From Methanocaldococcus indicus (GTDB taxonomy: Archaea > AGJL01 > Methanococci > Methanococcales > Methanocaldococcaceae): a DNA stretch of 64,000 bases. A program made the translations under genes and the position numbers. Under the pieces are notes generated by a model. The model had not been told where the DNA came from. It saw nothing but the letters and a program-made list of their open reading frames with translations, and made no database searches. The DNA is taken from positions 384,001 to 448,000 of the forward strand of contig NZ_CP186926.1 of NCBI RefSeq assembly GCF_049554935.1, written 5' to 3'. Position 1 is the first letter of the stretch. Every line of letters starts with the position of its first letter. Below are positions 16,563-58,264 of this stretch, in pieces.

Positions 16563-17003
16563 GATAACAATTATCACGCTAAAAATTTTTATTTTTTGAT
16601 TTTATTGGGTTTTAGTTGATTATTTTCAATTTAGAGGATTTTTAGGGAAATTCAGAGGGGTCTGTATTTTGAATATTTTATATATTCTAATTATATAATC
16701 TATTGAGATTTTTAGGTGTTTTATGTCGTTCCTTTTAATATTTGAAAATCTCCAATAAATAGAGTTGATTTTTTAATATAAAAAATTTTTAATTGAAAAA
16801 TATGGAATAGAAAGATTTTTATAAAAGTTCAAAGGTATATAAATGAATAGGGAAACCTACCCTTCAAAAAATTTTTATGTAGAAAAGCTTATATATGAGA
16901 AGGTCGTTAATGTTATTATGTCTAAAATGTGCCAATAAGCCCTTTTTGTTTCATAAATATTTTTAGAGAATGTCGTTAATGTTATTATGTCTAAAATGTG
17001 CCC
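16563..17003 (+). promoter_or_regulatory. CRISPR leader 1 (long AT-rich leader, BRE/TATA AAAAGCTTATATA near 16884-16896)
   Basis: Aligns by eye over its whole length with 56794-57166; immediately precedes array 1. Confidence 0.85.
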
Positions 17004-17367
17004 GCTAAAATCGTGCCTCTTGGAGGATGGAATTTTTATTTTAGAGTGTTTAATATATCATCTGATTACGAGCTAAAATCGTGCCTCTTGGAGGATGGAA
17101 TATTTTGCCACTTCTGAAACTCTTAACCCAAATAACCGCTAAAATCGTGCCTCTTGGAGGATGGAATTTATAATAATCATATTAAGAAGATGCAGAAGAA
17201 TGTCTTAAAAATGCAGAGTACTTGGAGGATGGAATTTATAATAATCATATTCTTCCTTTTTCTCCCATGCTAAAATCGTGCCTCTTGGAGGATGGAAACT
17301 TTTTTATTAAATTTATAGGATGTGGAGTTAGATTTGCGCTAAAATCGTGCCTCTTGGAGGATGAAAA
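17004..17367 (+). CRISPR. CRISPR array 1: 5 full 30-bp repeats plus one half repeat, repeat GCTAAAATCGTGCCTCTTGGAGGATGGAAW
   Basis: Repeats at 17004, 17072, 17138, 17269 and 17338 (last degenerate); half repeat 17221-17235; no cas genes adjacent. Confidence 0.95.
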
Positions 17368-17406
17368 TCACTTTTTTTTATTTTAAAAAAACAAATGTGA
17401 GTATAA

Positions 17407-18045
17407 ATGAAAGTTGCTATTTTATCAGAAGGTAAATATGGATTGAGAGCATATAATAACATTAAAGAGAAATTTCCTACTGATTTTTTAATTGTGAAGT
17501 ATTATGGAGATGTTGATATAGAGATTGATAAAGATATTATTAAAAAATTAAAAGATTATGATTTATTTATTTTATATTTAAATCCAAATTTATCCTATGA
17601 GATTGTTGAAAAAATTAAAAAACTAAATCCAAAAGCTTATGTTATATTAGGATTTTGGGGTGGAGAAGGTTTTAAGAGGCAAATTGAAAAGTTTGGTAAT
17701 TGTATAGCTCCTAAACTTTTATGTGAGTTAGATGAAGAATATTTAAAGAACTATATTGATAAGTATCCTCAACTAAAAGAGTTTTTAAAATACTTTGGAA
17801 AGCCAAAAATAGAAGTGAAACTTAAAGATAATAAAATAGTTGATTATATAGTAATTAGGGACTCTATTTGTGGCTCTGCCAAGGAAGTTATTAAAGAGTT
17901 TTTAGGTAAAGAGTTTAATAAGATAGATTTAGGTTTGAGATTACAACATTTCTGTGTTGCTGGAAAATGTGACATTTTTAAAAAAGAAGAGAGTAAAAAA
18001 GCAAAAGCTGGAAAAATTTTTGTTGAAAATATAGAGACTGTTTAA
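17407..18045 (+). CDS. DUF166 family protein
   Basis: GKYGLRAY, FGKPKIEV, RDSICGS, RLQHFCVA resemble DUF166. Confidence 0.65.
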   Translation: MKVAILSEGKYGLRAYNNIKEKFPTDFLIVKYYGDVDIEIDKDIIKKLKDYDLFILYLNPNLSYEIVEKIKKLNPKAYVILGFWGGEGFKRQIEKFGNCIAPKLLCELDEEYLKNYIDKYPQLKEFLKYFGKPKIEVKLKDNKIVDYIVIRDSICGSAKEVIKEFLGKEFNKIDLGLRLQHFCVAGKCDIFKKEESKKAKAGKIFVENIETV

Positions 18046-18761
18046 GATACAACAATATATTTAATTACTTGTTTTATAACATCTAAAATCTTTTTTGTTG
18101 TTATATATGATATAGCTTCATCATGATACTCTATATCTACATACTCCTCCAAAATTTTAGCTCTTCTTTTAGCTAACTGAATAGCTACTAAATGCTCCAC
18201 AGCATAACCTTCTCCAAAATACATATCTCTTAAAAATTCAGCTTTGATAACTCTAAAACCACACTGTATATCTCTAAAAATATAAATTTTTTTTACATAA
18301 AGGGATATCAGTAAAGATATTAAGAGAGAAGCTAAAAAATTAGAAATCTGCCTATAAAAAGGAATATTTTTATATCTTCTAATACCAAAAACTGCATCTG
18401 CATCTTTTATTTTACTTAAAAGCTTTGGAATATCTTTTGGCTTATGCTGATAGTCCCCATCCATAAAAACTATATATTCATATCCCAAGGATAATGCTAA
18501 ATTAACACCTTTCTCAATACTCTTAGCTTTTCCAAAATTTTTTTTATTTTTTAATAAGAAAACCTTTATTTTAGAGTTTTTTTTATAATCTTCAACTACT
18601 TTATAAGTTTTATCTTTTGAGCCATCATCTACAACTATAACATCTATCTTAATCTTTTCTAAATCATTTAAAACTTTTAAAATATTTTTTTCTTCATTGT
18701 ATGCTGGAATTACAACAACTGCCTTATGTGGTATATTCTGCATTGATTTTGACATATTCAT
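18042..18761 (-). CDS. Glycosyltransferase family 2 (DPM synthase-like)
   Basis: VVIPAYNE, VDDGSKD, MDGDYQH, DIQCGFR. Confidence 0.92.
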   Translation of the reverse strand: MNMSKSMQNIPHKAVVVIPAYNEEKNILKVLNDLEKIKIDVIVVDDGSKDKTYKVVEDYKKNSKIKVFLLKNKKNFGKAKSIEKGVNLALSLGYEYIVFMDGDYQHKPKDIPKLLSKIKDADAVFGIRRYKNIPFYRQISNFLASLLISLLISLYVKKIYIFRDIQCGFRVIKAEFLRDMYFGEGYAVEHLVAIQLAKRRAKILEEYVDIEYHDEAISYITTKKILDVIKQVIKYIVVS

Positions 18762-19890
18762 AACTTAAATCACAGCCATAGAATTTTTCCTCAACATCAC
18801 CAACTTTTAAGTCAATAATTATCTTAATTTTTTTATTTTTTATTATGTTTTCAGCTTTTTTTAGTATTTCTCCCCCAACTGCCAATGGCTCATTATTTTT
18901 AACTAAATAAACATCTTCTTTATAGTTAGAGAGAATAATATCAATATCTTTAAAATCTGCCCCACTGTATCCAACAGCTGCTAAAATTCTTCCCCAATTT
19001 GGGTCATTACCAAAAAGAGCTGTTTTAACTAAAAGGGAATTAATAACTGCTTTTCCAGCTTTTTTAGCATCATCTACATTTTTAGCATTTTTTATAACAA
19101 CTTCTACCAACTTAGTTGCTCCTTCACCATCTTCAACTATCTTCTTAGCTAAATAGTCCATAATTTCATATAAAGCTTTTTTAAATTCTTCTTTACATTC
19201 ATTATAATCAATTCCACACTCTCCATTAGCTAAAATAAAAACTGTATCATTTGTTGATGTATCCCCATCCACAGAGATGTTATTAAATGTCTTATTTACA
19301 CATTCATCAGTAACCTCTTTTAATTCCTCTCTGTCTATCTTTAAGTCAGTTATAATGAAGCATAACATAGTTGCCATATTTGGATGTATCATACCAGCTC
19401 CTTTTGCTATTCCTAAAATTTTAACCTCTTTACCATTAATATTTAAGCTCTTAGCTATATACTTAGGAAACTTATCTGTTGTCATTATAGCCTTAGCAGT
19501 ATTCTCAACATTACTCTCCTTCTTAACTAAATTAGAAACTCTATAAACTAAATCTTTTAATTTTTCAATATTTGCATCTCTACCAATAACTCCTGTTGAA
19601 GCTATTAATACATCATCTTCATTAACATCTAAATATTTTGAAACATCTTTTATCATTTCCTTACATGCCAATAAACCATTTTTGTTGTAACAGTTTGCAT
19701 TACCACTATTTGCAACTATAACTCTAAATTTGTCCTTCTTTTTTATTAACTCTTGAGAAATTAAAACAGGATAAGCCTTTACTCTATTTTGTGTAAAAAC
19801 TCCATAACCTACTGCCTCTTTTTCAGAGTAAATTATTGATAAACCATAATCTTCTTTAATTCCATTCAATTTAAAACCTTTTGGAATCAT
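18724..19890 (-). CDS. argJ: Glutamate N-acetyltransferase / ornithine acetyltransferase
   Basis: NSGNANC, AIMTTD, KGAGMIHPNMATML, DGDTSTND, DGEGATK, INAEYTT. Confidence 0.97.
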   Translation of the reverse strand: MIPKGFKLNGIKEDYGLSIIYSEKEAVGYGVFTQNRVKAYPVLISQELIKKKDKFRVIVANSGNANCYNKNGLLACKEMIKDVSKYLDVNEDDVLIASTGVIGRDANIEKLKDLVYRVSNLVKKESNVENTAKAIMTTDKFPKYIAKSLNINGKEVKILGIAKGAGMIHPNMATMLCFIITDLKIDREELKEVTDECVNKTFNNISVDGDTSTNDTVFILANGECGIDYNECKEEFKKALYEIMDYLAKKIVEDGEGATKLVEVVIKNAKNVDDAKKAGKAVINSLLVKTALFGNDPNWGRILAAVGYSGADFKDIDIILSNYKEDVYLVKNNEPLAVGGEILKKAENIIKNKKIKIIIDLKVGDVEEKFYGCDLSYEYVKINAEYTT

Positions 19891-20327
19891 TCTTTCTTAA
19901 CCTCCATTAGAGCTATTTTTTCTAAAACTCTCTCAACAGTAGAACCATATCCTTTAATTTTGAATATATTTCTTATAGCCTTTTCTTTTTCTTCATTTAA
20001 ATCTAAAACAGAGTTATCTACTTCTCCACCAACAATATTATGGATTTTTTTAAATGTTTCTTCATCTTTACAAACAACACATATATCTCCATCTTTTGCT
20101 CCAAATATCCTTATTGCTTCATTTATCTGCCTTCTCCCAGAAGCTCTTACTAATATCTCCATCCAAAAATCTTTTGCTATATTTTTTTTAGTTTTTGCTT
20201 GATATATAGCTTGTAAGATATGCCTCTCTGTCGCTATAAATTTTGCATTTAAAAGTTGTTTCTCCTTTATATTAAATACTTCATCTTTTATTTTAGCCCC
20301 TCTTATTCCTCTAATTATCATACTCAT
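19887..20327 (-). CDS. cgi121: KEOPS complex subunit Cgi121
   Basis: EILVRASGRRQINEAI, VLEKIAL. Confidence 0.88.
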   Translation of the reverse strand: MSMIIRGIRGAKIKDEVFNIKEKQLLNAKFIATERHILQAIYQAKTKKNIAKDFWMEILVRASGRRQINEAIRIFGAKDGDICVVCKDEETFKKIHNIVGGEVDNSVLDLNEEKEKAIRNIFKIKGYGSTVERVLEKIALMEVKKE

Positions 20328-21089
20328 TCACATTTTTATATTTAAATTATTCTCATCAACTATTTTAACATCTTTCAAACTTTTTAAACCAAAGTTTTTG
20401 GCAGTTTTTTCTATACCAAGTTCTTTATCAGTATTTACATAAACAACATAAGCATCTAACTCCTTAATTCCTAAGTTATAGGCAGCAACTGCTCTATGAT
20501 GCCCATCCACTAAAATATATTTATCATTATTATTTCTTTTAATTACAATTATTGGCTCAGCTAAACCTTTTTTTATCTCATAGATTCTACCTAAGTATTC
20601 ATCATAATCTATCTTATTTTGAGTAGGGAGAAGTTTCTCAACTTCAACCTTTTTCCTTTCAACTTTCACATCATAACCCAATGTTTTATATGTCTTTATT
20701 ATATTTTCTAATTTTTTTGGTGTTGTTTTTTCTATTTGAGACCTAATAACATCCATATTGGATATAATTCCCAATAAATTGTTATTTTCATCTACAACAG
20801 GTAGTTTTGAAAAACCAGTTCTAAACATAATCCTTCCAACATTCATAATATTTTCATTTGGATGTGTTACAACCATATTCTCTCTTTTTGTCATTATATT
20901 CTCAACTTTTTCATTTTCATCCACTCCTACAATATCTCTAACTGAAACTATTCCAACTAACTTACCATCCTCCACAACAGGAAAAGAGCCATGTTTTGTC
21001 TTTTTTATTAGTTCAATGACATCTTTAACAGTATCATCTTTTGATAGTGTATAAACCTTTTTTGTCATATACTCATAAACCTTTGTCAT
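20328..21089 (-). CDS. CBS-pair plus ParB/Srx-like domain protein
   Basis: Two CBS domains followed by PTQ...EPIIV...LVDGHHRA. Confidence 0.85.
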   Translation of the reverse strand: MTKVYEYMTKKVYTLSKDDTVKDVIELIKKTKHGSFPVVEDGKLVGIVSVRDIVGVDENEKVENIMTKRENMVVTHPNENIMNVGRIMFRTGFSKLPVVDENNNLLGIISNMDVIRSQIEKTTPKKLENIIKTYKTLGYDVKVERKKVEVEKLLPTQNKIDYDEYLGRIYEIKKGLAEPIIVIKRNNNDKYILVDGHHRAVAAYNLGIKELDAYVVYVNTDKELGIEKTAKNFGLKSLKDVKIVDENNLNIKM

Positions 21090-22231
21090 AATAATTCCTC
21101 ATTTATTTTTTCTTTAACAATATTATAAATCTCTCTAATAGTTAAATTATACTTTTTAGATAATTTTTTTAGGTCTTCAAATTCAGGTTTTATGTTGATT
21201 ATTTCATTATCTATACATGAAACTTTAATTCTAACATTTTCATCTAACACTTTTATTGTTTTTGTATATCTATCAGCCTTAAATCTATCTGAATAAAAAA
21301 CTCTAACTCCAATAGTCCCTGTTTCTTTCATTATCTTTTTTGCTGTTTCATAAGCTTTTTCTCTACTAACTATTGCTCTAATAATATATCCTGGCCTATT
21401 TTTTTTCATATATGTAGGAATAAAATGCAAATCTTTAACATCTAAAACCTCAAACAAGTTCCCTAAAATTTCTCCTGTTGTGTCATCAACATTACTCTCT
21501 AAGATTGCAACTTTTTCAATATTTTCCTTTTTAATTTTAAAAACTCTTAAAACATTTGGAATATCTAAATCTTTCTCTCCTGCACCATAAGAAACTTTTA
21601 ATATTTCAAAATCCCCACTTATTATCTTAGGATTTATATATTTTATTATAACAGCTCCTGTAGGTGTTGTTAGTTCCCCAAAATTTTTGTCTGAAAAGAA
21701 TACTTTAAAATTTTTTAAGAGCTCTGCAACAGCAGGAGGAGGAACTGGGTAAGTTCCATGCTCAATATCTATGAAACCATTTCCTAAGTTTATTGGTCTA
21801 TAAAAAGAATTATCTTTTAAGTTCAATTTATTTATAATATAGCTTGCCCCTACTAAATCCACAACAGTGTCATAACTTGCCAATTCATGGAAATGAACAT
21901 CTTCCAAATCAACATTATGAATTTTACTTTCAACCTCAGCTAAGGTTTTTAGCATAGTTAGAGATGTCTTTTTTATATTATTTTCAATATTTGAATTTTT
22001 TATTAAATTATATATTTCTTTATAGTTGTAGTTCCATTCATCATAATAATTAATTATTAGTTTATTAGCCAAAATCCCTCTCTTATTTACTTTTACAATC
22101 TCTAAATCAACATCTACAACTTTTTTTATTGTTAAAAATAGTTCTTCTTTATCTATATAATCACAAAAAGCTGAAATAAACATATCTCCACTAATACCAC
22201 AAAATGGGTCAATTATAAACATAACATTCAC
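21086..22231 (-). CDS. larC: LarC family nickel insertion protein
   Basis: GISGDMF, VHFHE, ELTTPTGA, YGAG, ESNVDD, MKKNRPG, ETGTIGVR, KPEFED. Confidence 0.9.
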   Translation of the reverse strand: MNVMFIIDPFCGISGDMFISAFCDYIDKEELFLTIKKVVDVDLEIVKVNKRGILANKLIINYYDEWNYNYKEIYNLIKNSNIENNIKKTSLTMLKTLAEVESKIHNVDLEDVHFHELASYDTVVDLVGASYIINKLNLKDNSFYRPINLGNGFIDIEHGTYPVPPPAVAELLKNFKVFFSDKNFGELTTPTGAVIIKYINPKIISGDFEILKVSYGAGEKDLDIPNVLRVFKIKKENIEKVAILESNVDDTTGEILGNLFEVLDVKDLHFIPTYMKKNRPGYIIRAIVSREKAYETAKKIMKETGTIGVRVFYSDRFKADRYTKTIKVLDENVRIKVSCIDNEIINIKPEFEDLKKLSKKYNLTIREIYNIVKEKINEELL

Positions 22232-22305
22232 ACTGAAATAAATAATTTTTAATAATTATTTTTATAATAATTTTATATGATTTTTTATTTTTAGTGTGAT
22301 ATAGT

Positions 22306-24009
22306 ATGTTATGGAAGGATGTATGTGAAATTTTTAGAAATATAGAAAATACTACCAAGAGATTAGAAAAAAGAGCACAATTTATTAAGTTAATTGACAA
22401 AGTAAAGAATCCAGAGGATTTAAAGAGGATATGTTATATTACTATTGGAAGAGTTTTTCCAGAGTGGGATGAGAAGGAGTTAGGAGTTGGAGAGAAACTT
22501 TTAATAAATGCAATAGTCTCATCAGGAATAAATAAGGATAAACTCTTAAAAGCTATTCATGAGACAGGAGATATAGGATTAGCAGTTGAAAAATTAAAAA
22601 AAGAGAAGAAGGGAACAAATCTACTATTTTATCAACCTCTAACAGTTGAAGATGTTTATAAAACATTAAAAAGAGTTGCAGAAATTGAAGGAGAAGGTTC
22701 TCAAAAGAAAAAATTAAGGTTAATAAGTAGTTTATTTGTTAGAGCTAATCCTTTGGAAAGTAGATACTTAGCAAGGTTAATTTTAGGAGATATGAGAATA
22801 GGAATGAATGTTCCAACTATATTGGAAGCACTCTCAATATATTACAATGTTCCAAAGGAAAAGTTAGAGAAGATTTACTCTGTTGTTAATGATATTGGAT
22901 TATTAGCTGAAAAGTTGGCTAAAAATGAATTAGATGAATCTTTAACTATTCAAGTTTTTAGACCAATAAAACCAATGTTGGCTCAACTAACTCCATCAAT
23001 TGAAGAAGCTCTCTTAGAGATGGGAACAGCTCAGTTTGAAACTAAGTATGATGGTGCAAGAGTGCAAATACACAAAAAAGATGATAAAGTCAAAATTTAC
23101 AGTAGAAGGTTGGAAGATATAACTAACTCTCTTCCTGAGATTGTTAATGAGTTTAAAAAGCTTCCTGGAGAGTTTATAGTAGAAGGTGAATGTGTAGCTA
23201 TTCAGGAAGGTAGGCCAAGACCTTTCCAAGATATTTTAAGAAGGATTAAAAGAAAGTATGACATACATAAAATTTCAAAGGAAATAAATTTAAGAGTTTA
23301 TTTATTTGATATTCTCTATAAAGATGGAAAGTCCTATATTGATATACCTTTTAAAGATAGAAGAAAAGCATTAGAAGAGTTTGTAGGTTATGAGAATGAT
23401 TGGAAGAAAGACAGAGAAAAGATTGAAAAAGAGCTTAAAGAACACAAAATAATTGATATATCTTATAAGTTAGTTACTAATAAAGTGGATGAGGCAAGAG
23501 AATTCTACAATTGGAGTTTAGATATAGGACATGAGGGAGTTATGATTAAAAATTTAAAAGCTCCTTATACTCCTGGAAGTAGAGTTAGAACAATGTATAA
23601 GTTTAAACCAACATTGGAGAATTTGGATGTTGTTATTATAAAAGCTAAGAAAGGTATGGGTAAGAGAAAAGATTGGTATGGCTCTTTTGAAATTGCTGTA
23701 AGAGATGAAGAAGGGAATCTCTATTCTATTGGACATGTTGGAACTGGATTAAGTGAGGAAGATTTAGAGATGTTAAAAAAGGAAATTGATAAAATTATAT
23801 TAGAGGATTTAGGAGATGAAGTAGTAGTAAAGCCAGAGATTGTTTTAGAGGTTGCTTATGAAGAGATACAGAAATCTGATAAGTATAAAGGAGGATATGC
23901 TCTAAGATTTCCGAGAGTTGTAAGATTTAGATTTGATAAAGGGAAAGATGATATAAACACATTGGATGATGTAAAACAGATATATGAAATTCAGAGGAGT
24001 AGGAAATGA
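22306..24009 (+). CDS. lig: ATP-dependent DNA ligase
   Basis: KPMLAQ, ETKYDGARVQIH, EGVMIK, LRFPR. Confidence 0.97.
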   Translation: MLWKDVCEIFRNIENTTKRLEKRAQFIKLIDKVKNPEDLKRICYITIGRVFPEWDEKELGVGEKLLINAIVSSGINKDKLLKAIHETGDIGLAVEKLKKEKKGTNLLFYQPLTVEDVYKTLKRVAEIEGEGSQKKKLRLISSLFVRANPLESRYLARLILGDMRIGMNVPTILEALSIYYNVPKEKLEKIYSVVNDIGLLAEKLAKNELDESLTIQVFRPIKPMLAQLTPSIEEALLEMGTAQFETKYDGARVQIHKKDDKVKIYSRRLEDITNSLPEIVNEFKKLPGEFIVEGECVAIQEGRPRPFQDILRRIKRKYDIHKISKEINLRVYLFDILYKDGKSYIDIPFKDRRKALEEFVGYENDWKKDREKIEKELKEHKIIDISYKLVTNKVDEAREFYNWSLDIGHEGVMIKNLKAPYTPGSRVRTMYKFKPTLENLDVVIIKAKKGMGKRKDWYGSFEIAVRDEEGNLYSIGHVGTGLSEEDLEMLKKEIDKIILEDLGDEVVVKPEIVLEVAYEEIQKSDKYKGGYALRFPRVVRFRFDKGKDDINTLDDVKQIYEIQRSRK

Positions 24010-26366: not shown

Positions 26367-26504
26367 ATATATTAATATAATATATTTTTATAAATATATA
26401 TTGAAATATTCATATTTATAGTGACATATTAACTTTTTGATTTGAAAAAAATCAAAAGCTATAAATAAAATGATAATAAGAGCTACTATTTAAGAGGTGA
26501 TAAG

Positions 26505-26819: not shown

Positions 26820-26833
26820 ACATTGTAAGAGTT

Positions 26834-27190: not shown

Positions 27191-27267
27191 ATTCATAAAA
27201 TTTTTGACGAATTTAGAATGATAAATTAAATATATTAGTAATCTACAAACCATATTTTGGTGATAAG

Positions 27268-27426: not shown

Positions 27427-27446
27427 ACATTAAAATTGATGTAACT

Positions 27447-27722: not shown

Positions 27723-27732
27723 AGGTGAAATT

Positions 27733-28413: not shown

Positions 28414-28452
28414 TTTAATAATCATTTCCTTCAAAAAATTATATTTTGGGGT

Positions 28453-46158: not shown

Positions 46159-46222
46159 AGTTATCCCAAAGATTTTTATTATGTATTGTAATAAACTATT
46201 ATCCTAACAATTAAAATATTTA

Positions 46223-48177: not shown

Positions 48178-48228
48178 TTTTAATAGAATTATTACCAAAA
48201 ATAAAAAACATAAATTGGTGAGAAAAAG

Positions 48229-48660
48229 ATGTTTATATGCCTACATAACACATATTCAGCTAAGCAAGTTGAAGAATTTGGAAGGATAGCTTTTGGTTTT
48301 GATGTTAATACAGTTATAATAACAAAAGCAACTGCATCAGCTGCTCAGAGTGGTGTTCCAACATTACAAAAGATGGCATACAAATTAGGAAAAAATATGC
48401 TATTTTTTGAGGATTTAGATGATGCTATTGAACTTTTAAGGCCTGAAAAAATTTACTTAATAGGAAATAAAAATATTTGTGATGAAAAATTAAACTTTGA
48501 AGAAGTTGGAAAAAATGATTTAGTTGTATTTTGTGGAGCAAATACTGGATTTACTAAATTAGAATTAGAGAAAGGTTTAGGGAGATATATAGTGGAGAAT
48601 GAAATTGGAGCCTTAGGAAATTTAGCTATATTTTTATATGAAATAAATAAACTAAGATAG
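48229..48660 (+). CDS. DUF2122 (COG4080) SPOUT-like protein
   Basis: LHNTYSAKQVEEF, SAAQSGVP, GFTKLEL. Confidence 0.7.
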   Translation: MFICLHNTYSAKQVEEFGRIAFGFDVNTVIITKATASAAQSGVPTLQKMAYKLGKNMLFFEDLDDAIELLRPEKIYLIGNKNICDEKLNFEEVGKNDLVVFCGANTGFTKLELEKGLGRYIVENEIGALGNLAIFLYEINKLR

Positions 48661-48663
48661 ATT

Positions 48664-50022
48664 ATGAAAGAATTAATTAAAGCTAAAAATTTATTTTTAA
48701 ATGCTGAAAATGTATTGATAGTTACACATATTGATACTGATGGTCTAACATCAAGAGCTATCTTACAAAAGGTAGTTGAAAGAACAAATAAAGAAGCTGA
48801 ATTTTTATTTTTAAAACAAATTAATGAGAAGTCTATAAATTATGTTGAGAAAGATTATGACTTAATAATTTTTGCTGACTTTGGTTCAGGGCAACTATCT
48901 CTCTTGGAAGAATATTTTAAAGATTATAATGGAAAAATTATTATTTTAGACCATCATCAGCCAGAAAAAGAAAACATTAAACTTAAAAATATTGTCCATG
49001 TAAATCCAATAATGTATAATTTAGAGACATGTGGAGCAGGAGTTTGCTACTTATTTGCAAAATCTATTAATAATAATTGGATTGATTTGGCTAAATATGC
49101 TGTTTTAGGAGCTATTGGAGATGTGCAAAATCTCTATGGAAAGTTAGAAGGTTTGAATAGAAAGATACTAAATGATGCTGTATTTTCAGGGGAATTGGCT
49201 GTTAAGAATGACCTACAACTTTATGGTAGATGCAGCAGACCTCTTTTTGTCTCTTTAAGATATTGGAGTGATGTAAGAACAGATTTATTGAACAATGATT
49301 CAAATATTATCTCATTCATAAATAGAATAAACAAAAAATATAACATAGATATTAATCCAGCAGAGAAACTTAACAATATTCCTTATTCTCACAAAAAGAT
49401 TATTGGTAATGAACTTTTAATAAAGAGTTTGGAATATATTCCAACAGAATGGATAAAATATTTGCCTTATGTTATATTTGGAGAAGCTTATGAAGTTGTT
49501 AATGAGGAAGAAGATATATTAAGAGATTTATCTGAATTATCTACTTGTATAAATGCCTGCACAAGATACAAAGATTATAGGACTGCTTTGGATATCTTAA
49601 TTGGTAGTAGAAAAAGGTTAAGTAAGTTAAAATCAAATTTAAGAGAGCATAGAAAAAATTTAAGATATGCATTAGAACATATAGCAACAGAAGTAGATAT
49701 TATAAAAGAGAAAAACTTCCAATATTTCAAAACTGATAAAATAGATGAGAGTATAATTGGAATTGTTGCTGGAATGAGCTATTCAATTGAAGATATTGAC
49801 TGGAAAAAACCAATAATTGGAATAGTTGAAAATGATTATGGTTATAAAGTTTCTGCAAGATGTCCGAGATTGTTATGCTTTGCAGAAGATGTAAATTTAG
49901 CTGAAGCTTTAAGATATTCATCTAAAAAAGCTTATGGTTCTGGAGGAGGACATAAGTTTGCAGCAGGAGCATATGTTAAAGATATATCAGCATTTATAAA
50001 TTCTTTAAAAATTAGCTTATAA
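48664..50022 (+). CDS. RecJ-like DHH/DHHA1 phosphoesterase
   Basis: [31 protein letters not shown]. Confidence 0.92.
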
Positions 50023-50069
50023 ATATTATTTAAGAAAATTTAATTTTAATGTTATTTAAGGTGTTATTA

Positions 50070-51134
50070 ATGGAAGCTGTTTTAGTATTGGAAGATGGAA
50101 CTGTTCTAAAAGGAAAAGGTTTTGGTGTAGAAAAAGAGGTTTATGGTGAGTTAGTTTTTACAACAGTTATGACTGGATATGTAGAAGTTTTAACAGACCC
50201 TTCATATAAGGGACAAATTGTTACAATGACTTATCCTCTTATTGGAAATTATGGAGTATCAGAAGAATGGTTTGAATCTGATGGAATAAAAACAGAAGGA
50301 TATGTAATTAGAGAGCTAACAGGAATTGAATTAGACAATTTTTTAAAGAAATATGACATCCCAGGAATTGAAGGAATTGATACAAGATTTATAACAAAAA
50401 AAATAAGGACTGGTGGAGTAGTTAAGTGTTGCTTAAAAACAGCTGAAAAAATTAATGATGAAGAGATAGAAGAAATAAAAGATAAAGTAAAGAAACATAA
50501 AGATATATCTGAGATTGATTTAGTTCCACAGGTTTCTATAAAAGAGAAATTTATTCATAAAGTACAAAATCCAAAAGCAAGGTGTGTATTAATAGACTGT
50601 GGAGTTAAAAAAGGAATTATTCTAAATTTATTAAAAAGAGGATGTGAAGTTGTTCAAGTTCCATACAATACTGAATATGAAAAAATTTTATCTTATAATC
50701 CTGATTTTGTCTTAATATCTAATGGTCCAGGAGACCCAGAAAGGTTAAAAGATACTATAAAAACAATTAAAAATTTAATTGGAGAGGTTCCTTTAACTGG
50801 AATATGTTTAGGACATCAATTAATATCCTTAGCTTTTGGTGGAAAAACTTACAAAATGAAATTTGGGCATAGAGGAGGTAATCAGCCAGTTAAAAATTTA
50901 GAAACAGAAAAAGTTTATATAACATCCCAAAATCATGGATTTGCTGTTGATGTTAATAGCTTATCTGATGAAATAAAACCATTATACATAAATCTAAATG
51001 ATAACACAGTTGAAGGAATTAAACATGTTGAACTTCCAATATTCTCTGTCCAATTCCACCCAGAAGCAAGACCTGGACCACATGATACACAGTTTTTATT
51101 TGATGAGATGATAGCTCTAAAAAATATAAAATAA
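50070..51134 (+). CDS. carA: Carbamoyl-phosphate synthase small subunit
   Basis: [40 protein letters not shown]. Confidence 0.97.
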
Positions 51135-51229
51135 TAAATAAATATTGACAAATAATTAAATATATAAAATAATATTCCATAAACTATATATAAACCTTTA
51201 TTTTATTATTATTATTGCTCTTTTGATGT

Positions 51230-51318
51230 GCAGGGGTAGCCAAGCCCGGCTAAGGCGCTGGACTTGAGATCCAGTGGGGCTCCGCCCCGCCTGGGTTCAA
51301 ATCCCAGCCCCTGCGCCA
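51230..51318 (+). tRNA. tRNA-Ser(TGA)
   Basis: GCAGGGG...CTGGA-CTTGAGA-TCCAG, long variable arm, GGTTCAAATCC, discriminator G, CCA encoded. Confidence 0.94.
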
Positions 51319-51461
51319 TATTTTTTATGGGCTTTTTTTAATTTCTAATTTCTATTAATCATAATAGTATAGTATATTTTTATTTTCTAATCTAAATCTA
51401 ACATATTATTTATGCTATAAAATCTTTTTAATTAAAAATTAAATATTTTGGTGAAAAATTT

Positions 51462-52496
51462 ATGAAAGAAAATCCTTTTAAAAAAATTCCTACAATTTTA
51501 CTTCCTGATGAATTAATGGATAAAGCATTAAGAAGAGGAGAGAAAGTAGCAGAAGAGATGAGAAAGAAAGAATTACCTTGGCTAATGAAGGCTAAGGTTG
51601 TAGAAGAGCATAAAGTAAGGACTATATCCTCTGTATTGGCTGATAATTTACAAAAAATAATTGATAAAACACCTCCTGTAAGAAAGTTACCAAAGTTCTA
51701 TCAGGAGATGGTTGAGGTTTTGGTAGGAATTGATGAATTTAAAAAATGTATGGGTGCTTTTAAGTGGGCATCAGATTTAATAAGAAAGCTTGGAAATGAA
51801 TATGCAAAGAAAATTAGAAGAGCTAAAACACCAGAAGAAGCTGCTAAATTAAGAAAAGAATTTGTAGGTAGAGCTAAATCAATACTAAAAAGAATAGAGC
51901 CAGAAATGGGATTTATAGCAGTTGCAAGAGAAAAATTAAAAGATTTACCTACTTTTAGAGATACATTTACTGTTGTTTTAGCAGGTTATCCAAATGTTGG
52001 TAAATCTACAATTTTAAAAAAATTAACTGGCGCAGATGTAGAAATAAATAGTTATCCCTTCACAACTAAGGGAATAAATGTTGGACATCTTGAAGATATA
52101 CAAATAATTGACACACCAGGATTGTTAGATAGACCTCTATATGAAAGGAATGATATAGAACTTCAAGCAATATTAGCATTGAATTATTTGGCCAATTTGA
52201 TATTATTTGTTATAGATATTTCTGAATACTGTGGATATACATTAGAAGAGCAATTAAACTTATTAAAAGAGATAAAAAACCTCTTTAACATTCCAATTAT
52301 GGTTGTTATTAATAAAGTTGATTTAGTAGATGAGAATAAAATAAATGAGATTAAAGAAAAATTAAGAGAGTTAGGAATAGAGGATATTTTAGAGATATCA
52401 GCAGATAAAGAAATTAATTTAGATGAATTAAAAAAATTATTAAAAGAGAAATTTAAACAAAACCTTAGAAACAAATTAGAAAGTAATAATTTATAA
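51462..52496 (+). CDS. NOG1 family GTP-binding protein
   Basis: GYPNVGKS, YPFTTK, DTPGLLDR, NKVD. Confidence 0.93.
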   Translation: MKENPFKKIPTILLPDELMDKALRRGEKVAEEMRKKELPWLMKAKVVEEHKVRTISSVLADNLQKIIDKTPPVRKLPKFYQEMVEVLVGIDEFKKCMGAFKWASDLIRKLGNEYAKKIRRAKTPEEAAKLRKEFVGRAKSILKRIEPEMGFIAVAREKLKDLPTFRDTFTVVLAGYPNVGKSTILKKLTGADVEINSYPFTTKGINVGHLEDIQIIDTPGLLDRPLYERNDIELQAILALNYLANLILFVIDISEYCGYTLEEQLNLLKEIKNLFNIPIMVVINKVDLVDENKINEIKEKLRELGIEDILEISADKEINLDELKKLLKEKFKQNLRNKLESNNL

Positions 52497-52727
52497 TAAA
52501 GCCTTAACCATAGGGTCTGTTACTTCTTCTGGAGAAATCTCTTTTATACTTTTTATTATTATTCTTGTTCTTTTAACTTTATACAATCCTCCAAATTTTG
52601 AGTATATCTCTTCTAAAGCATCTTTTTCATTTAAAGCTCTTAATTCTTTTTTAAATACTAATGGCTGTTTTCCTTTTTTTCTAACTTCTCCCTCAACTCT
52701 AAATATTTTAACTTCCAAGTTTTTCAC
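52491..52727 (-). CDS. rpl18a: 50S ribosomal protein L18Ae (LX/eL20)
   Basis: KIFRVEG...FKKELRA...EEIYSKFG...KRTRI. Confidence 0.88.
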   Translation of the reverse strand: MKNLEVKIFRVEGEVRKKGKQPLVFKKELRALNEKDALEEIYSKFGGLYKVKRTRIIIKSIKEISPEEVTDPMVKALL

Positions 52728-52966
52728 CTCTTTACAATTTTATATATGTTTTGAGCAACAGATATCCACCTTAGATAGGAGTATAAAGAAGCTTTTAATA
52801 TTGAAAGTTCTTCTGCTTCAACATAAATTTTAATCTTGTTTTTATATTTTTCCATCTTTGCCCTTGATTTTATTTGACTATCTATATGCTCTATAAATAT
52901 TGATTTATATATTATTTCTGCTTCTTCTTCACTATCAAACTCTAAATTTAAAATAGAAGAGTTCAT
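52724..52966 (-). CDS. pcc1: KEOPS complex subunit Pcc1
   Basis: EEAEIIYKSI...LKASLYSYLRW; position in the conserved rpl37ae-rpoP-Brix-Pcc1 operon. Confidence 0.85.
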   Translation of the reverse strand: MNSSILNLEFDSEEEAEIIYKSIFIEHIDSQIKSRAKMEKYKNKIKIYVEAEELSILKASLYSYLRWISVAQNIYKIVKR

Positions 52967-52967
52967 T

Positions 52968-53459
52968 TTAATCCCAAACACTATCAAAGAGCTTAACTGA
53001 CTTAACTCTAATTAATGGCCCTATTTTAACTCTATTTTTATAGAACTGTATAGCAAATAAATATTTACTATCTTTCTCAACAGATAAAGTAAAGTTACTT
53101 TCATTATTTATATTGAAATGATTAAAGAAAAACTCTTCATAAAGATGGAGGTATTCATTATTATAATTAATCTTTATTTTAATTCCATTATTGTTCTCTA
53201 CTTTTCCTCCACATATCTCTCTTTGTAGTTTAACAGTTATGAATGAAGATAATTTTTTATCTTTTTCTAAATTATAAAAAACTAAACTTCCAGGATTTCC
53301 TCTAAACTCTCCAATTAATAAAATATTATTATCTATCTCAAATAATTCTTTTAATGATAATTTTCCTCTTTGGACATAAGGAATATTTAATACTCTTTCT
53401 AAATCTCTTGCAAAGCTTCTTGTTCTCTGGGAGGGTTTCCTTGATGTTGTTATAATCAT
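52968..53459 (-). CDS. Brix-domain ribosome biogenesis protein
   Basis: [24 protein letters not shown]. Confidence 0.88.
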
Positions 53460-53461
53460 AA

Positions 53462-53602
53462 TTATCTTGCCTTAACTACTTTAACTACTTTAGGTCTTAA
53501 TTTAACTAATATTTTATTACTACAATAAGGACATCTAACTCTACTTCCTAATTCTTCTAATTTTATGACTCTTTTACACTTTAGACATTTATACTCTACC
53601 AT
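53462..53602 (-). CDS. rpoP: RNA polymerase subunit P (Rpo12), not in ORF track
   Basis: Manual translation [46 protein letters not shown]. Confidence 0.93.
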
Positions 53603-53670
53603 ATTTAAATCCCCAAATATGAATTAAATTATCATAAAAAATATTTATAATAAATATATAAATGAATATT

Positions 53671-53949
53671 TTATTCTTCTTTCTCTAAGACTCTTCTAAT
53701 AGCTTTCATAACTGCTTTTCCTGCACCTGTTTCTGGTGTATATGCTCCACCAGCTATTTTAGCTCCACATTTTCCACAAACCCATATAGAAGTTGAAGCT
53801 CTTTTTAATTTTGGAAATCCACATACTGGACATTTGTATTTTTGTTTTGCTTTAACTTCTACATCTCTAACTCTTGCTCTAATTTTTAACCCATATCTTG
53901 CTCCAAATCTTCCAGCAGGTCCTACTTTTTTAGTGTGACTAAATGCCAT
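53671..53949 (-). CDS. rpl37ae: 50S ribosomal protein L37Ae
   Basis: [12 protein letters not shown]...WVCGKC, GGAY. Confidence 0.97.
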
Positions 53950-53955
53950 TTACTC

Positions 53956-54663
53956 TCACCCATCATATTTTTTTACTACTTTTGTTATTGCATTACCTTC
54001 TGTAATTTTGTTTAGTTCATTGTAGAACTCTGATTCTATACCACTTGGTATTTCAATAAGAACTATTAAACTACCGTCAGAACACCATTCCTCTTGTTTA
54101 ACTGCTCCAAATTTATATAAAAATCCATAAGCTTTTGAAGCATATTCTGGAGGAACTTTAACAGCAATATCTCTTTTTTCAAATTTAATAGGAAGAAGTC
54201 TTTTTAATTTTTTAACTATATCAGGAACTTGTTCTTCAGCAGATTTGTAAATGTCAATATTAATCCTTAACTCCTCCATAGCCCTCTCAATCCTTTGAGG
54301 AGGATGGGGAGTATCTGTTTGTGGATTAATAGTATTTCTACAAATAATATTTATTATTTGTCTTTTTTTCTGCTCTTTAATTTCTTCTCTTTGTTTAGCA
54401 GTTAATTGAACAGTTCCTTTTTTTATAATAATTTTAGCTATTTCTTTTATATCAGTAGTCCCAAATACTTTTTTAACAAGTTCTTCAGGAGCCTTTTCTC
54501 CTTTATGAGCATCTCTATATACTACATCAATAGCTAAAAGTTCATCCATATCTACATCTATTCCTTCTTTAAGCTTAGCAGCTAAATATGGATCTACTAA
54601 AATTTCAAACTTCTCTCCATGAGATGTATATCTTGCAATAACTGCCTCATCTAACGAGACCAT
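53956..54663 (-). CDS. Ribosome assembly factor SBDS/SDO1
   Basis: [24 protein letters not shown]. Confidence 0.95.
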
Positions 54664-54791
54664 AATATATCACCATAAATTATATAAAATTTTTGTTTAT
54701 CAAAAATAGTCTTAAAACATAAAAAAACAATACATTTATAATTATTATTAATTTTAAGGAGTTATAAATAAATTATGTTAAGTGTGTAATT

Positions 54792-56780
54792 ATGAAAACA
54801 GAATTAACAAATGTTGATATATCTGCTATTGTTGATGAGCTAAAATTTATAGAGAATGGAAGAGTAGATAAAGCATTTCTAATAAGTAATGAGGAAAATA
54901 AAGAACTAATCTTAAAAATTCATATCCCTGAGAGAGGTAGTAGAGAGTTAGTTATTAGTGTTGGTAAATATAAATATATAACTCTAACAAATTATGAGAG
55001 AGAAAAACCTAAGCTACCTCCTTCTTTTGCTATGCTTCTAAGAAAGTATCTTTCAAATGCAAAAATAGAGAAGATTTATCAGTATAGTTTTGACAGAATT
55101 ATTGTTATTGAATTTAGAAAAGTCAGTAAGTATAAGTTAATAGTTGAGCTGTTTAAAGAAGGAAATATAATATTTACTGATGAGAATAACAATATTATTG
55201 TTCCTTTGAAAGTAGAAAAATGGAGCACAAGGATTATAGCTCCAAAACATGAATATAAATTTCCAGAACAAAGACCATTAACTCCTTACAACTTAGATTA
55301 TTCAATTGCCTATGAAATTTTTAGAGATTACTTTTTAGAGAATAAGGATGTTGAATGTGTTAGATTAGTTTCAAGGTTGTTAGGTTTAGCAGGACTGTAT
55401 GCAGAGGAGATATGTGAAAGAGCTAAGATAGATAAAAAGAAAAAAAATTTAACAGAAGATGAAATAAAAAATCTATTTTTAGCTGTTAAGAATTTCTTTA
55501 ATGATGTTTTTAATAACAGAGAGCCAAAGATTATATTAAAGGATAATCAGTTTATAGATGTTACTCCTATCAATTTATTAAAATATAAAGATTATGATAA
55601 AAAAGATTATGAGAACTTTATAGAGGCAGTTGATGACTACTTTGCAAATTTCTTAGCTTTAAAAAAGATAACAAAAGTTAAAAGTAAAGTTGAAAAAGAG
55701 ATAGAGAAGCAAGAATCAATATTAAAAAGACAGTTAAGAACTTTGGAAGAGTATAAAAAAGAAAGTGAAAAAAATAGAATAAAGGGAGATTTAATTTATG
55801 CTAATTATCAATTAATTGAAGAGCTTTTAAATGCCATAAATTTAGCAAGAGAAAAAAAGAGCTGGGAAGAGATTAAAAAGATTATAAAAGAAAATAAAAA
55901 TCATCCAATTTTAGGAATTATTGAAGATATAAGAGAAAATAAAGGAGAGTTAATAGTTAGATTAAAATATGAAGATGTTGAAGAAAGAGTAGTTTTAGAT
56001 ATAAGAAAAAATGCATTTGAAAATGCTGAATCTTATTATGAAAAAGCCAAGAAATTAAAAAATAAGTTAAAAGGTATTGAGGAGGCAATTGAAAGAACTA
56101 AAAAGAAAATTGAAGAATTGAAGAAAAAGAGAGATGAAGAAATAGAAGAGAAAAAACCTAAGAAGAAAAAGAGAAGAGAAAGAAAATGGTACGAGAAATT
56201 TAAATGGACAGTTATTGACAATTTCTTAATAATAGCTGGAAAAGATGCTATAACAAATGAAATAATAATTAAAAAATATACTAATAAGGATGATATTGTC
56301 TTTCATGCAGACATAACAGGAGCTCCTTTTACTGTTATAAAAACTAATGGTAGAGAAGTTAAAGAAGAGACATTATTAGAGGTTGCTAAATTTGCTGCTT
56401 CACATTCAAAAGCTTGGAAGTTAGGTTATGGAGCTATAGATGTGTATTATGTTAAACCAGAGCAAATATCCAAACAAGCTGAAAGTGGGGAGTATTTAAA
56501 AAGAGGAGCATTTATGATAAGAGGTAAAAGGAACTATATCAGAAATGTGCCCTTAGAGTTGGGAGTAGGAGTGTTAGAATATGATGGAGAAATTAAAATT
56601 ACAACTGCCCCAAAAAGAACATTAGAAGAGAGATTTTTAAAGTATGTTATGCTAAAACCATCTAATAAAGAGAAAGGTAAGGTAGTTAAAGAACTTAAAA
56701 ATATATTTAAGGAGTATGACTTAGATGATGAAGAAATTCTTTCAGTTCTTCCACCAGGAGGTTGTGAAATAGTTAAATAA
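54792..56780 (+). CDS. rqcH: Ribosome quality-control protein RqcH/NEMF (NFACT)
   Basis: FAMLLRKYL, FDRI, ELFKEGN, WYEKFKW, GKDAITNE, FHADITGAP, GAFMIRG. Confidence 0.92.
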   Translation: MKTELTNVDISAIVDELKFIENGRVDKAFLISNEENKELILKIHIPERGSRELVISVGKYKYITLTNYEREKPKLPPSFAMLLRKYLSNAKIEKIYQYSFDRIIVIEFRKVSKYKLIVELFKEGNIIFTDENNNIIVPLKVEKWSTRIIAPKHEYKFPEQRPLTPYNLDYSIAYEIFRDYFLENKDVECVRLVSRLLGLAGLYAEEICERAKIDKKKKNLTEDEIKNLFLAVKNFFNDVFNNREPKIILKDNQFIDVTPINLLKYKDYDKKDYENFIEAVDDYFANFLALKKITKVKSKVEKEIEKQESILKRQLRTLEEYKKESEKNRIKGDLIYANYQLIEELLNAINLAREKKSWEEIKKIIKENKNHPILGIIEDIRENKGELIVRLKYEDVEERVVLDIRKNAFENAESYYEKAKKLKNKLKGIEEAIERTKKKIEELKKKRDEEIEEKKPKKKKRRERKWYEKFKWTVIDNFLIIAGKDAITNEIIIKKYTNKDDIVFHADITGAPFTVIKTNGREVKEETLLEVAKFAASHSKAWKLGYGAIDVYYVKPEQISKQAESGEYLKRGAFMIRGKRNYIRNVPLELGVGVLEYDGEIKITTAPKRTLEERFLKYVMLKPSNKEKGKVVKELKNIFKEYDLDDEEILSVLPPGGCEIVK

Positions 56781-56793
56781 TTTTAAATATTCA

Positions 56794-57166
56794 GATGACA
56801 ATTATCACGCTAAAAATCTTTATTTTTTGATTTTATTTAGTTTTAGTTGGTTATTTTTAATTTAAAGGATTTTTAGGAAAATTCGAAGGGGTCATTATTT
56901 TGAATATTTTGTATATTTTGATTATATAATTTATTGAGATTTTTTAGAGATTTATGTTGTTTCTTCCAATATTTGAAAATCCCTGATAAGTTGGTTTAGT
57001 TTTTGGAAATTGGGACTTTTTAATTGAATAATAGGAAATAGAAAGATTTTTATAAAAGTTCAAAGGTATATAAATGAATAGGGAAACCTACCCTTCGAAA
57101 ATTTTAGTACCAAAAAGCTTATATATGAGAACGTTGCTATATTATTATGTCTAAAATGTGCCTCCT
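56794..57166 (+). promoter_or_regulatory. CRISPR leader 2 (homologous to leader 1)
   Basis: Shares ACAATTATCACGCTAAAAAT...GGTATATAAATGAATAGGGAAACCTACCCTTC...AAAAGCTTATATATGAGAA...TTATGTCTAAAATGTGCC with 16563-17003. Confidence 0.87.
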
Positions 57167-58264
57167 GTTAAAATAAGACCGTCCCGGTATGGAAATTTTA
57201 TGTTATAATTTGTAATAGTATATAACATAGCTAAATGTTAAAATAAGACCGTCCCGGTATGGAAATTGCATCTCTAATAATTCTTTCAGCTGGAATGTGC
57301 TTGTTAAAATAAGACCGTCCCGGTATGGAAATTTATGTTATGACATTGGAATTGCAGGAGATGTTAAGTTAAAATGCCTTTCTAAATCGTTCTTTTGGTC
57401 TCTGCTTGAATTGGAATTGCAGGAGATGTTAAGTTAAAATAAGACCGTCCCGGTATGGAAATTATGAAGTCATAGAAATGGATGGAGAGCCTTTTTTGTT
57501 AAAATAAGACCGTCCCGGTATGGAAATCAACTTTTAAGAATTCTTTTGTTAGTTGGACTGGCTTAGTTAAAATAAGACCGTCCCGGTATGGAAATAATTT
57601 TGTCCTTGTGAGTGTTACTTTTAAGCCATATCCCTTAAGTTAAAATAAGACCGTCCCGGTATGGAAATTTCATTCCAAGAAAACGAAAATCTCGATAGGC
57701 GTTAAAATAAGACCGTCCCGGTATGGAAATAAAAAAGAGATGTGGTGCTCAATGGTTATTTGTTTAAGTTAAAATAAGACCGTCCCGGTATGGAAATCTT
57801 CATATTGGAATTCTTCTTTATCTTGCAAACCATGTTAAAATAAGACCGTCCCGGTATGGAAATCTTCATATTGGAATTCTTCTTTATCTTGCAAACCATG
57901 TTAAAATAAGACCGTCCCGGTATGGAAATTTTTTTGAATACATAGCTAATCACTTGACACTTGATGTTAAAATAAGACCGTCCCGGTATGGAAATATTGT
58001 AGGGGATATAACTAACACAATTAGGGTTAAGTTAAAATAAGACCGTCCCGGTATGGAAATATGACTAAGCAAATATTTTGAAGTATAAAACAAAATGTTA
58101 AAATAAGACCGTCCCGGTATGGAAATCGTCCCCCCTCGCCCCTCGGCTTTAAAGTCATGACATGTTAAAATAAGACCGTCCCGGTATGGAAATCTTATCT
58201 CAAATTGTATCTCAAATAAAAGATGCTAATATCAGTTAAAATAAGACCGTCCCGGTATGGAAAT
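57167..58264 (+). CRISPR. CRISPR array 2: 16 identical 30-bp repeats GTTAAAATAAGACCGTCCCGGTATGGAAAT
   Basis: Repeats at 57167, 57237, 57303, 57433, 57498, 57566, 57639, 57701, 57768, 57834, 57900, 57966, 58031, 58097, 58164 and 58235; no cas genes in window. Confidence 0.98.

Follow-up and report, generated by a model that had tools for sequence, protein, structure and literature searches.

Duplicated segments and inserts at the CRISPR loci

The stretch of DNA considered here (the window) is a 64,000-nucleotide segment of the chromosome of Methanocaldococcus indicus, G000:C1:384001-448000, and carries two CRISPR arrays, A and B. The genome comprises a 1.414 Mb chromosome (C1) and a 22-kb plasmid (C2), 1.44 Mb in all. 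In or beside the two arrays there are three places, termed ev1, ev2 and ev3, at which a segment of 31 bp is present twice with a spacer-sized insert between the copies. These scars very probably record spacer integration that went out of register or off target. Positions without a prefix are those of the window, and the features discussed are as follows.

16563-17003, plus strand: leader of array A, with ev1 near its 3' end; the part at C1:400563-400933 is 85% identical to the leader of array B
16903-16933, plus strand: ev1, first copy of the duplication, 31 bp (scan row C1:400903, length 31, spacing 69)
16934-16971, plus strand: ev1, insert, 38 bp, spacer-sized
16972-17002, plus strand: ev1, second copy, ending 1 nt short of the first repeat of array A
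17004-17367, plus strand: CRISPR array A, with repeats at 17004, 17072 and 17138 (30 bp), 17269 (31 bp) and 17338 (degenerate)
17153-17183, plus strand: ev2, first copy, the last 15 nt of repeat 3 and the first 16 nt of its spacer (scan row C1:401153, length 31, spacing 68)
17184-17220, plus strand: ev2, insert, 37 bp
17221-17251, plus strand: ev2, second copy (from repeat-family comparison)
56790-57166, plus strand: leader of array B, with the 3' end ...AAAATGTGCCTCCT
57167-58264, plus strand: CRISPR array B, 16 identical 30-bp repeats, with ev3 between repeats 3 and 4
57345-57375, plus strand: ev3, first copy, the final 23 nt of spacer 3 with the opening 8 nt of the repeat that follows (scan row C1:441345, length 31, spacing 65)
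57376-57409, plus strand: ev3, insert, 34 bp
57410-57440, plus strand: ev3, second copy, the last 8 nt of which are the start of the intact repeat 4

The copies agree at 31 of 31 positions in each of the three events. Counted from the start of a repeat, the offsets are -32 for ev1 (16972 relative to 17004), +15 for ev2 (17153 relative to 17138) and +42 for ev3 (57345 relative to 57303), and the distances to the leader-repeat junction are 149 and 178 bp or less. An earlier reading of this DNA, the original prediction, had described three exact 31-bp duplications here; we confirm them, with inserts of 34-38 bp, and reproduce all of the offsets that it gave. Its description of the repeats as 30 bp long applies to array B and to repeats 1-3 of array A, but not to repeat 4 of array A, which has 31 bp.

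The repeat of array A is a variant of the A type with the first bases GCTAAAAT, and the leader of this array belongs to a family found at 12 arrays of the genome. The segment duplicated in ev1 is present as a single copy in the other 11 leaders of the genome. One contig of the sequencing run X1 spans ev1 (16904-17001) with zero differences; X1 may be the assembly's own source.

The whole 1.44 Mb was scanned for exact direct repeats of at least 20 bp at a spacing of 50-95 bp. The 82 rows obtained consist of 69 canonical CRISPR repeat pairs, eight tandem repeats or 20-mers and five events, namely ev1-ev3 and two others at C1:965777 and C1:967231. A second scan, with two mismatches in 28 allowed and a spacing of 55-160 bp, gave nothing comparable outside the CRISPR-cas loci of this genome; the only other spacer-like rows there come from a 57-60 bp tandem repeat near C1:1271850. 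Both scans place the six events of the genome (ev1, ev2, ev3, ev4a, ev4b and ev5) within CRISPR-cas loci. A genome-wide search for such duplications had been envisaged in the original prediction and, run on this genome, it yields three further events and none away from these loci. We also note a 20-bp direct repeat pair at C1:898252-898271 (spacing 52), outside the arrays.

Two of the further events are nested in the cas2-adjacent array (C1:967164-967345, minus strand). The 31-bp duplication of ev4a consists of the last 14 nt of the leader and the first 17 nt of the repeat, and encloses an insert of 37 bp. That of ev4b, also 31 bp, runs from the exact leader-repeat junction through the 17-nt half-repeat and 14 nt of the ev4a insert, with an insert of 36 bp; the exact match is 32 bp when a T shared by chance is included. 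The order of the two is fixed because ev4b needs a sequence that only ev4a created. In ev4b the full leader together with 17 nt of repeat was reused, and an intact repeat with just 14 nt of leader ahead of it was passed over.

The remaining event, ev5, lies between the stop codon of cas4 and the start codon of cas1. A 33-bp duplication (C1:965777-965809 and 965849-965881) surrounds a 39-bp insert, which amounts to an insertion of 72 bp, and the cas4-cas1 junction is single-copy (an empty site) in four of four aligned relatives. Structurally, ev5 is a repeat-spacer-repeat unit outside any array. Across the six events the duplications measure 31, 31, 31, 31, 31-32 and 33 bp and the inserts 38, 37, 34, 37, 36 and 39 bp, so the inserts (34-39 bp) fall inside the range of canonical spacers in this genome, 32-48 bp. 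The last spacer of the array at C1:753653 carries at its end an additional GTTAAAAT right before the terminal repeat (C1:753770-753800, spacing 76 bp), which may be a further small register error.

The insert of ev2 has an identifiable source. It matches C1:1171348-1171384 at 37 of 37 positions and the plasmid (C2:9761-9797) at 35 of 37. Both sources lie in HEPN-domain genes (PF05168, E values of 3e-26 and 1e-26), a chromosomal gene and its plasmid paralogue, and the 5' flank of the source in the HEPN gene reads ...TATACCA. The insert has a spacer fragment on one side and a half-repeat on the other. Its processing into a functional CRISPR RNA is probably impossible, and the perfect self-match is presumably tolerated because this buried context blocks processing. 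The metagenome runs X2 and X3 contain the HEPN context of the insert in contigs too short to distinguish pre-insertion alleles.

Searches with the other inserts and with spacers were negative within their scope. No source of the ev1 insert was found in a self search of the genome, and its partial matches of 22/23 and 21/22 are AT-rich and were rejected as protospacers. The ev3 insert also lacks a self match. The ev5 insert has no exact match in the viral_contigs or metagenome_contigs collections, and neither it nor the ev3 insert is matched with three or fewer mismatches in any of 16 relatives. No protospacer emerged for the spacers of one relative's repeat type, and array A, searched against a plasmid collection, gave no protospacer, its matches being confined to CRISPR repeats of one Methanocaldococcus plasmid. 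One spacer is present in two arrays with different repeat types, at C1:935500-935540 (31-bp A type) and C1:1004460-1004500 (30-bp B type), with lengths about two bases apart, which suggests that one protospacer was acquired independently.

The genome encodes a single cas1, which matches TIGR03641 (type I-B Cas1b) with 448.9 bits against a cut-off of 304.1. The operon runs cas6, an open reading frame (ORF) of 517 aa, cas7, cas5b, cas3, cas4 and cas1, with a convergent cas2 beside it, next to the array of ev4. Scores exceed the cut-offs for cas2 (TIGR01573, 52.4 against 24.5), cas4 (TIGR00372, 72.7 against 65) and cas7 (Cst2/DevR; TIGR02585, 153 against 72.75), and the cas3 core, the HD domain and cas6 are likewise over theirs. 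The cas5b product is under the full-length cut-off, with its Cas5 domain over its own, and the 517-aa ORF at the position of cas8b had no family match in the profile search. By these profile matches the adaptation module can be typed as I-B (Cas1b, Cas2 and Cas4), accompanied by type I-B effector genes. A gene for an IS6-family transposase (NF033587, E value 6.5e-43) lies between cas6 and the ORF at the cas8b position (C1:958842-959486, or 8842-9486 of locus L001, minus strand). The corresponding site of a relative (L096) is just a 123-nt gap with no IS6 insertion, and the element might change how the cas genes downstream of it, cas4 and cas1 among them, are expressed. The convergent cas2 was considered as a reason for inaccurate integration and ruled out, as an 87-aa ORF on the opposite strand likewise follows cas1 in two of two relatives checked.

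The leader family is present in 17 genomes of the genus, at only 65-75% identity, and among them there is no orthologous array that could represent the state before ev2, ev3 or ev4. The loci compared for the frequency of such events were the following.

60 leader-array loci in seven complete genomes of the genus: 662 canonical adjacent pairs, one event
18 loci in an eighth genome of the genus: 17 canonical adjacent pairs, no events
80 loci around Cas1 relatives in archaea and bacteria (910,609 bases): 1,611 canonical adjacent pairs, one event

The scan of the 60 loci flagged 33 further rows, which on inspection comprise 32 ordinary repeats with chance extension and one event. In that event (locus L050, 389-419 and 453-483) a 31-bp leader segment abutting the first repeat is duplicated around a 33-bp insert, with the geometry of ev1. 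The event in the wider set (L106, approximately 11640-11738, from a Candidatus Pyrohabitans record, a distant archaeon with a Cas1 that is 52% identical) has its duplication running from a repeat-spacer junction into the spacer. With five in-array or leader events among about 89 integrations here and one in 680 in the genus sample, the odds ratio is 40 (Fisher p = 1e-4). Several other candidates in the wider loci were set aside: on inspection, L128 proved to be the same protospacer acquired twice and L110 a tandem repeat, while L119 (a second array) and L127, L138, L154 and L162 (two-copy arrays at contig ends) were dismissed from the scan listing. A 25-bp pair with one mismatch in L117 (15222-15246, spacing 67), outside the arrays, has no explanation and was not counted as an event.

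Some further observations concern array B and its surroundings. An exact tandem copy of a whole 66-bp repeat-spacer unit is present at 57768-57899, and a similarly duplicated unit occurs in the array at C1:1004150-1004320. Both look like recombination or slippage between repeats and not like integration scars. Just downstream of array B, a 57-bp direct repeat (58404-58460 and 58546-58602, 96% identity) encloses an 85-bp G+C-rich segment with a hairpin. The second 57-bp copy is the 3' end of a 1808-aa ORF (58545-63971, minus strand), by its motifs a putative replication factor C subunit interrupted by inteins, and the arrangement at 58404-58602 may be the remnant of an element integrated into the end of a gene. 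A search of Rfam gave no match there and, over 16000-59500, nothing beyond one tRNA and one sR3 sRNA.

Footprint length and choice of site

Seven events were counted for length: the six of this genome and the L050 event of a relative. Their exact duplications are 31, 31, 31, 31, 32, 33 and 31 bp. The extent to which chance adds to such matches was calibrated on 493 canonical pairs of 30-bp repeats from five relatives, of which 53% read as 30 bp, 32% as 31 bp, 11% as 32 bp and 3% as 33 bp. Across the seven events the likelihood ratio for a true length of 31 bp against 30 bp is about 130, or 23 when ev1 and ev5 are left out, and the fixed cut spacing of 31 bp put forward in the original prediction holds.

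Canonical duplications behave differently from this. The base that follows the repeat is variable in B- and C-type arrays; therefore, canonical copying there is 30 bp. The A-type array at C1:935195 copies 31 bp, and in the arrays at C1:281864 and in the window leader-proximal repeats of 30 bp stand beside older repeats of 31 bp. The canonical duplication tracks the length of each repeat and therefore the distal part of the repeat sets the second cut. About 31 bp would be the default spacing when that distal part is absent, its absence being the presumed reason for the fallback.

One cas1 serves three repeat types (A, B and C). Most leaders end in ...GTGCCTCCT and most repeats open with the same 8 nt, the exceptions being array A and two further arrays. 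What allows one integrase to serve the three types is that the final 14 nt of the leader and the initial 8 nt of the repeat are common to most arrays. The 40 nt ahead of the junction vary along with the type of repeat. The idea that a single leader family accommodates divergent repeats is borne out to the extent that there is one cas1 for three repeat types and a mostly common leader end.

The last 14-18 nt of the leader (…TAAAATGTGCCTC…; for example at 57147-57166 and C1:753633-753652) resemble the first half of the A-type repeat (TAAAATCGAGCCTC), with a local alignment score attained in 19 of 5000 shuffles and for 24 of 5000 20-mers drawn at random from the genome (p about 0.004). This likeness could reflect a fossil half-repeat or a functional mimic. 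Variation in repeat type and length along arrays was noted at several places: 11 C-type followed by three B-type repeats at C1:299409-300316, B-type repeats with a terminal C-type repeat at C1:1004082-1004859, 30-bp leader-proximal repeats beside older 31-bp ones at C1:281864-282430, and degenerate A-type relics behind a B-type array at C1:1143964-1144014.

The events differ in how far their sites resemble the junction. The cut of ev4b is at the true leader-repeat junction. For ev5, the closest leader-repeat junction is approximately 1.5 kb away. Of the 13 nt to its left, 10 agree with the canonical leader end without any shift, and a match as good occurs at only 1.7e-4 of genome positions. 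In ev2 the cut falls right after ...CTAAAATCGTGCCT within an A-type repeat, a sequence that is similar to the leader end of array A, ...CTAAAATGTGCCC, at 8 of 12 ungapped positions (p = 0.003). We conclude that at least ev5 and ev4b were guided by leader-end sequence, and probably ev2 too. The duplication of ev1 ends 1 nt ahead of the first repeat and extends into the leader. In ev1, L050 and L106 one boundary is no more than 1 nt from a canonical cut site and the extension is away from the repeat, as if the complex had docked on a real junction and measured in the wrong direction. The offsets -32, -14, 0, +15 and +42, and -31 in the relative, each fall no more than 3 nt from a multiple of 15; this was noticed post hoc and assumes that the repeats at ev2 and ev3 were then the first in their arrays.

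These results bear on the central proposal of the original prediction, in which integration was sequence-independent, positioned by the leader and achieved with little repeat recognition. Independence of sequence fails for part of the set, given the leader-end mimic at ev5 and the motif at ev2. Nor is repeat recognition slight: about 84 of 89 integrations in this genome (approximately 94%) are in register, the comparison genomes exceed 99% (679 of 680 in the genus and 1611 of 1612 in the wider loci), and canonical length follows the repeat, 30 or 31 bp. As to positioning by the leader, ev4b indicates that the leader end matters; the proximity of ev2 and ev3 is not significant alone (ev3 is at unit 3 of 15) and ev5 is far from any junction. 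The suggestion that such events could seed new repeat types does have an instance, since in ev4b a chimeric 31-bp 'repeat' was propagated once.

How the scars may have arisen

We consider it highly probable that the scars are full-site spacer integrations by the single type I-B Cas1-Cas2, with Cas4, that occurred out of register or off target. According to this model, the two 3'-OH ends of a spacer-sized fragment (34-39 bp) would attack opposite strands 31 bp apart and gap repair would copy those 31 bp to both sides of the insert. The first cut in normal integration would be set by the leader end (...TGTGCCTCCT) together with the repeat start (GTTAAAAT), and the distal half of the repeat would trim the second cut to the length of that repeat, 30 or 31 bp. 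Where the distal signal is absent, the complex would fall back on an intrinsic spacing of approximately 31 bp. It may have docked on a look-alike of the leader end in ev5 and ev2, and in ev4b on the true junction of a repeat that was already damaged. For ev1, and for one event each in two other genomes, the canonical cut site would have served as one boundary, with measurement away from the repeat. Docking in ev3 and ev4a would have been at shifts for which we have no explanation.

Mechanisms that involve no integrase might be invoked instead, such as slippage during replication, unequal recombination between the repeats, or an unrelated mobile element whose target duplication is long. Whole repeat-spacer units have been duplicated in tandem here (57768-57899 and C1:1004150), and a short way downstream of array B an 85-bp insert is enclosed by a 57-bp duplication. 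However, slippage and recombination do not place unrelated inserts of 34-39 bp between the copies. The reading of ev1 as a diverged 69-bp tandem duplication is ruled out, with 14 of 32 in-register matches in the first, non-duplicated part (p = 0.07) against 31 of 31 in the second. The sizes of the inserts are those of spacers, one insert was copied from a HEPN gene and all six events are in CRISPR-cas loci. An origin of this kind is in our view extremely improbable. The length itself could be questioned, with a true duplication of 30 bp, the repeat length, to which chance identity of the insert end and the flank has added a base. The 32% of canonical 30-bp pairs in relatives that appear as exact 31-mers show how this could come about, and the L106 event fits 30 bp, yet none of the seven events reads 30 bp; were 30 bp the true length, the chance of all seven reading above it would be 0.005. 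The likelihood ratio given above and the 31 bp obtained experimentally in Haloarcula hispanica on loss of the distal repeat half, according to the accessible text of that study (PMC4872114), also argue for 31 bp and render the shorter length very unlikely.

A stronger form of the original prediction, in which the long leader or chromatin places the integrase, the spacing is fixed, there is almost no recognition of repeat or target and the events sample normal behaviour, deserves more weight than these. The cut sites of ev1, ev3 and ev4a bear no similarity to the junction, and, of the seven events in the genus, five have their start no further than approximately 32 bp from a leader-repeat junction (ev1, ev4a, ev4b, L050 and, if repeat 3 was then the first, ev2). 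In ev4b a half-repeat behind the full leader was chosen in preference to an intact repeat behind only 14 nt of leader, which is in keeping with such placement, as is the service of three repeat types by one cas1. In-register integration, however, is the normal behaviour in this genome, as it is across the eight genus genomes and the 80 wider Cas1 loci, and canonical duplications follow repeat length (B and C types, 30 bp; A type, 31 or 30 bp). In addition, the last 40 nt of the leader co-vary with repeat type and ev5 occupies a leader-end mimic approximately 1.5 kb from a junction. We regard this stronger form, taken as a whole, as unlikely.

Several points weigh against integration by Cas1-Cas2 as we have described it. 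We infer both that Cas1-Cas2 was the agent and the order of the two attacks. When 16897-16902 is included, the match in ev1 stretches to 37 bp with one mismatch (GAGAAG and GAGAAT), which permits a second reading of ev1, as a 37-bp duplication that encloses a 32-bp insert and has one mismatch; the five additional matching bases are improbable as chance and have no explanation. To suit a spacing of 31 bp, ev5 at 33 bp requires two chance matches. The length of the L106 duplication is ambiguous, 30-32 bp according to the treatment of one mismatch and one shared base, with an insert of approximately 34-36 bp. The cuts of ev1, ev3 and ev4a lack similarity to the leader-repeat junction. A source can be traced for just one of the six inserts, and the 86 spacer intervals of the genome gave no self match except for the ev2 insert, so that a protospacer-adjacent motif (PAM) could not be derived; the original prediction had pointed to matches with foreign DNA or a PAM, and what we have is one insert traced to a HEPN gene and five with no source. 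Lastly, we have no explanation for the excess of events in this strain over the comparison genomes.

A more speculative possibility, which we think rather improbable although worth stating, is that the adaptation machinery of this strain is unusually error-prone or deregulated and that the genome is a natural mutation-accumulation record of remodelling at CRISPR loci. The IS6-family element between cas6 and the cas8b position, or the 72-bp insertion between cas4 and cas1, is a possible cause. If this were so, leaders would grow by the capture of half-repeats and inserts (the leader end is already like half of an A-type repeat), and the propagation of a chimeric 31-bp segment adjoining the leader, which happened once in ev4b, would give rise to new repeat types. 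New mini-arrays would be seeded at look-alikes of the leader end, as in ev5, and a conserved junction combined with a tolerant ruler of approximately 31 bp would let one integrase serve several repeat families and permit the turnover of repeats.

Comparison with known systems

The scars are real and are a natural instance of a known phenomenon, unusually frequent in this strain. In the literature searched, which did not extend to supplements, no report of such scars in Methanocaldococcus was found, and evidence for off-register integration from natural genomes is called circumstantial in the accessible part of a citing preprint. Off-register integration has so far been studied mainly with engineered repeats or purified proteins; here there are six clean natural events. 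They include a nested pair that echoes a result from H. hispanica, an insertion that sits in the adaptation operon where the sequence mimics the leader end, and a self-derived spacer. They supply testable numbers for an archaeal type I-B integrase, 31 as against 30 bp, with the leader's final 13 nt as a specificity element, and a concrete route to chimeric repeats and new mini-arrays. The approximately 40-fold excess over relatives makes the strain a candidate for studying the accuracy of integration, and its genome is a natural record of how a CRISPR integrase measures and picks a site.

In the type I-E system of Escherichia coli, off-target integration was reportedly found by Nivala, Shipman and Church in 2018 to spawn 'neo-CRISPR' loci, as passages citing that work relate. 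The likeness, so far as those passages go, is in a spacer-sized insert within a duplication of about repeat length at a non-canonical site, for which ev5 is the counterpart. By contrast, the events described here are natural, fixed and from an archaeal type I-B system, are mostly inside or at the edge of arrays and have a footprint of 31 bp.

Ectopic acquisition away from the first repeat is known in the type II-A systems of Streptococcus thermophilus and S. pyogenes, in some cases with leader mutations, according to the excerpts available from a review (PMC8047081). Array A likewise has an altered leader-repeat junction. As the type II-A cases are described in those excerpts, however, integration is in register and a whole internal repeat is duplicated, whereas here the register is shifted and chimeric or non-repeat sequence is duplicated.

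Closer parallels are found in archaea. Cas1-Cas2 of Pyrococcus furiosus carries out, alone and in vitro, off-target full-site integration at pairs of sites separated by 30-31 bp (Grainy et al., 2019; PMC6698737); leader-like and repeat-like bases aid the choice of site, and either border can be attacked first. These statements, taken from the accessible sections of the paper, resemble our findings in the paired attacks on opposite strands of non-CRISPR DNA, and the freedom in the first border fits the mirrored events seen here. The systems differ in that the former is a plasmid assay in vitro with an organism of another archaeal order. A preference for G or C at the cut is also described in those sections (PMC6698737), whereas there is no clear preference at the first or last bases of our seven duplications.

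In the type I-B system of H. hispanica the duplication always takes the leader-repeat junction as its start, and mutation of positions 16-30, 16-20 or 18-22 of the 30-bp repeat leads to a 31-bp duplication, on the evidence of the accessible text (Wang et al., 2016; PMC4872114). That work concerns an engineered repeat, and the same text reports no shifted choice of the first site and no mirrored events directed away from the repeat. The mid-repeat anchors AACCC and GTGGG of H. hispanica are in none of the three repeat types of this genome; therefore, any anchor here must be another sequence. The two systems are alike in the family of Cas1b (TIGR03641 being a model built on that lineage), in a 30-bp repeat and in the start at the junction, as far as the accessible text allows the comparison. 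Replacement of the distal half of the repeat in H. hispanica gave 31 bp, and ev4b is the same outcome in nature, as a single case.

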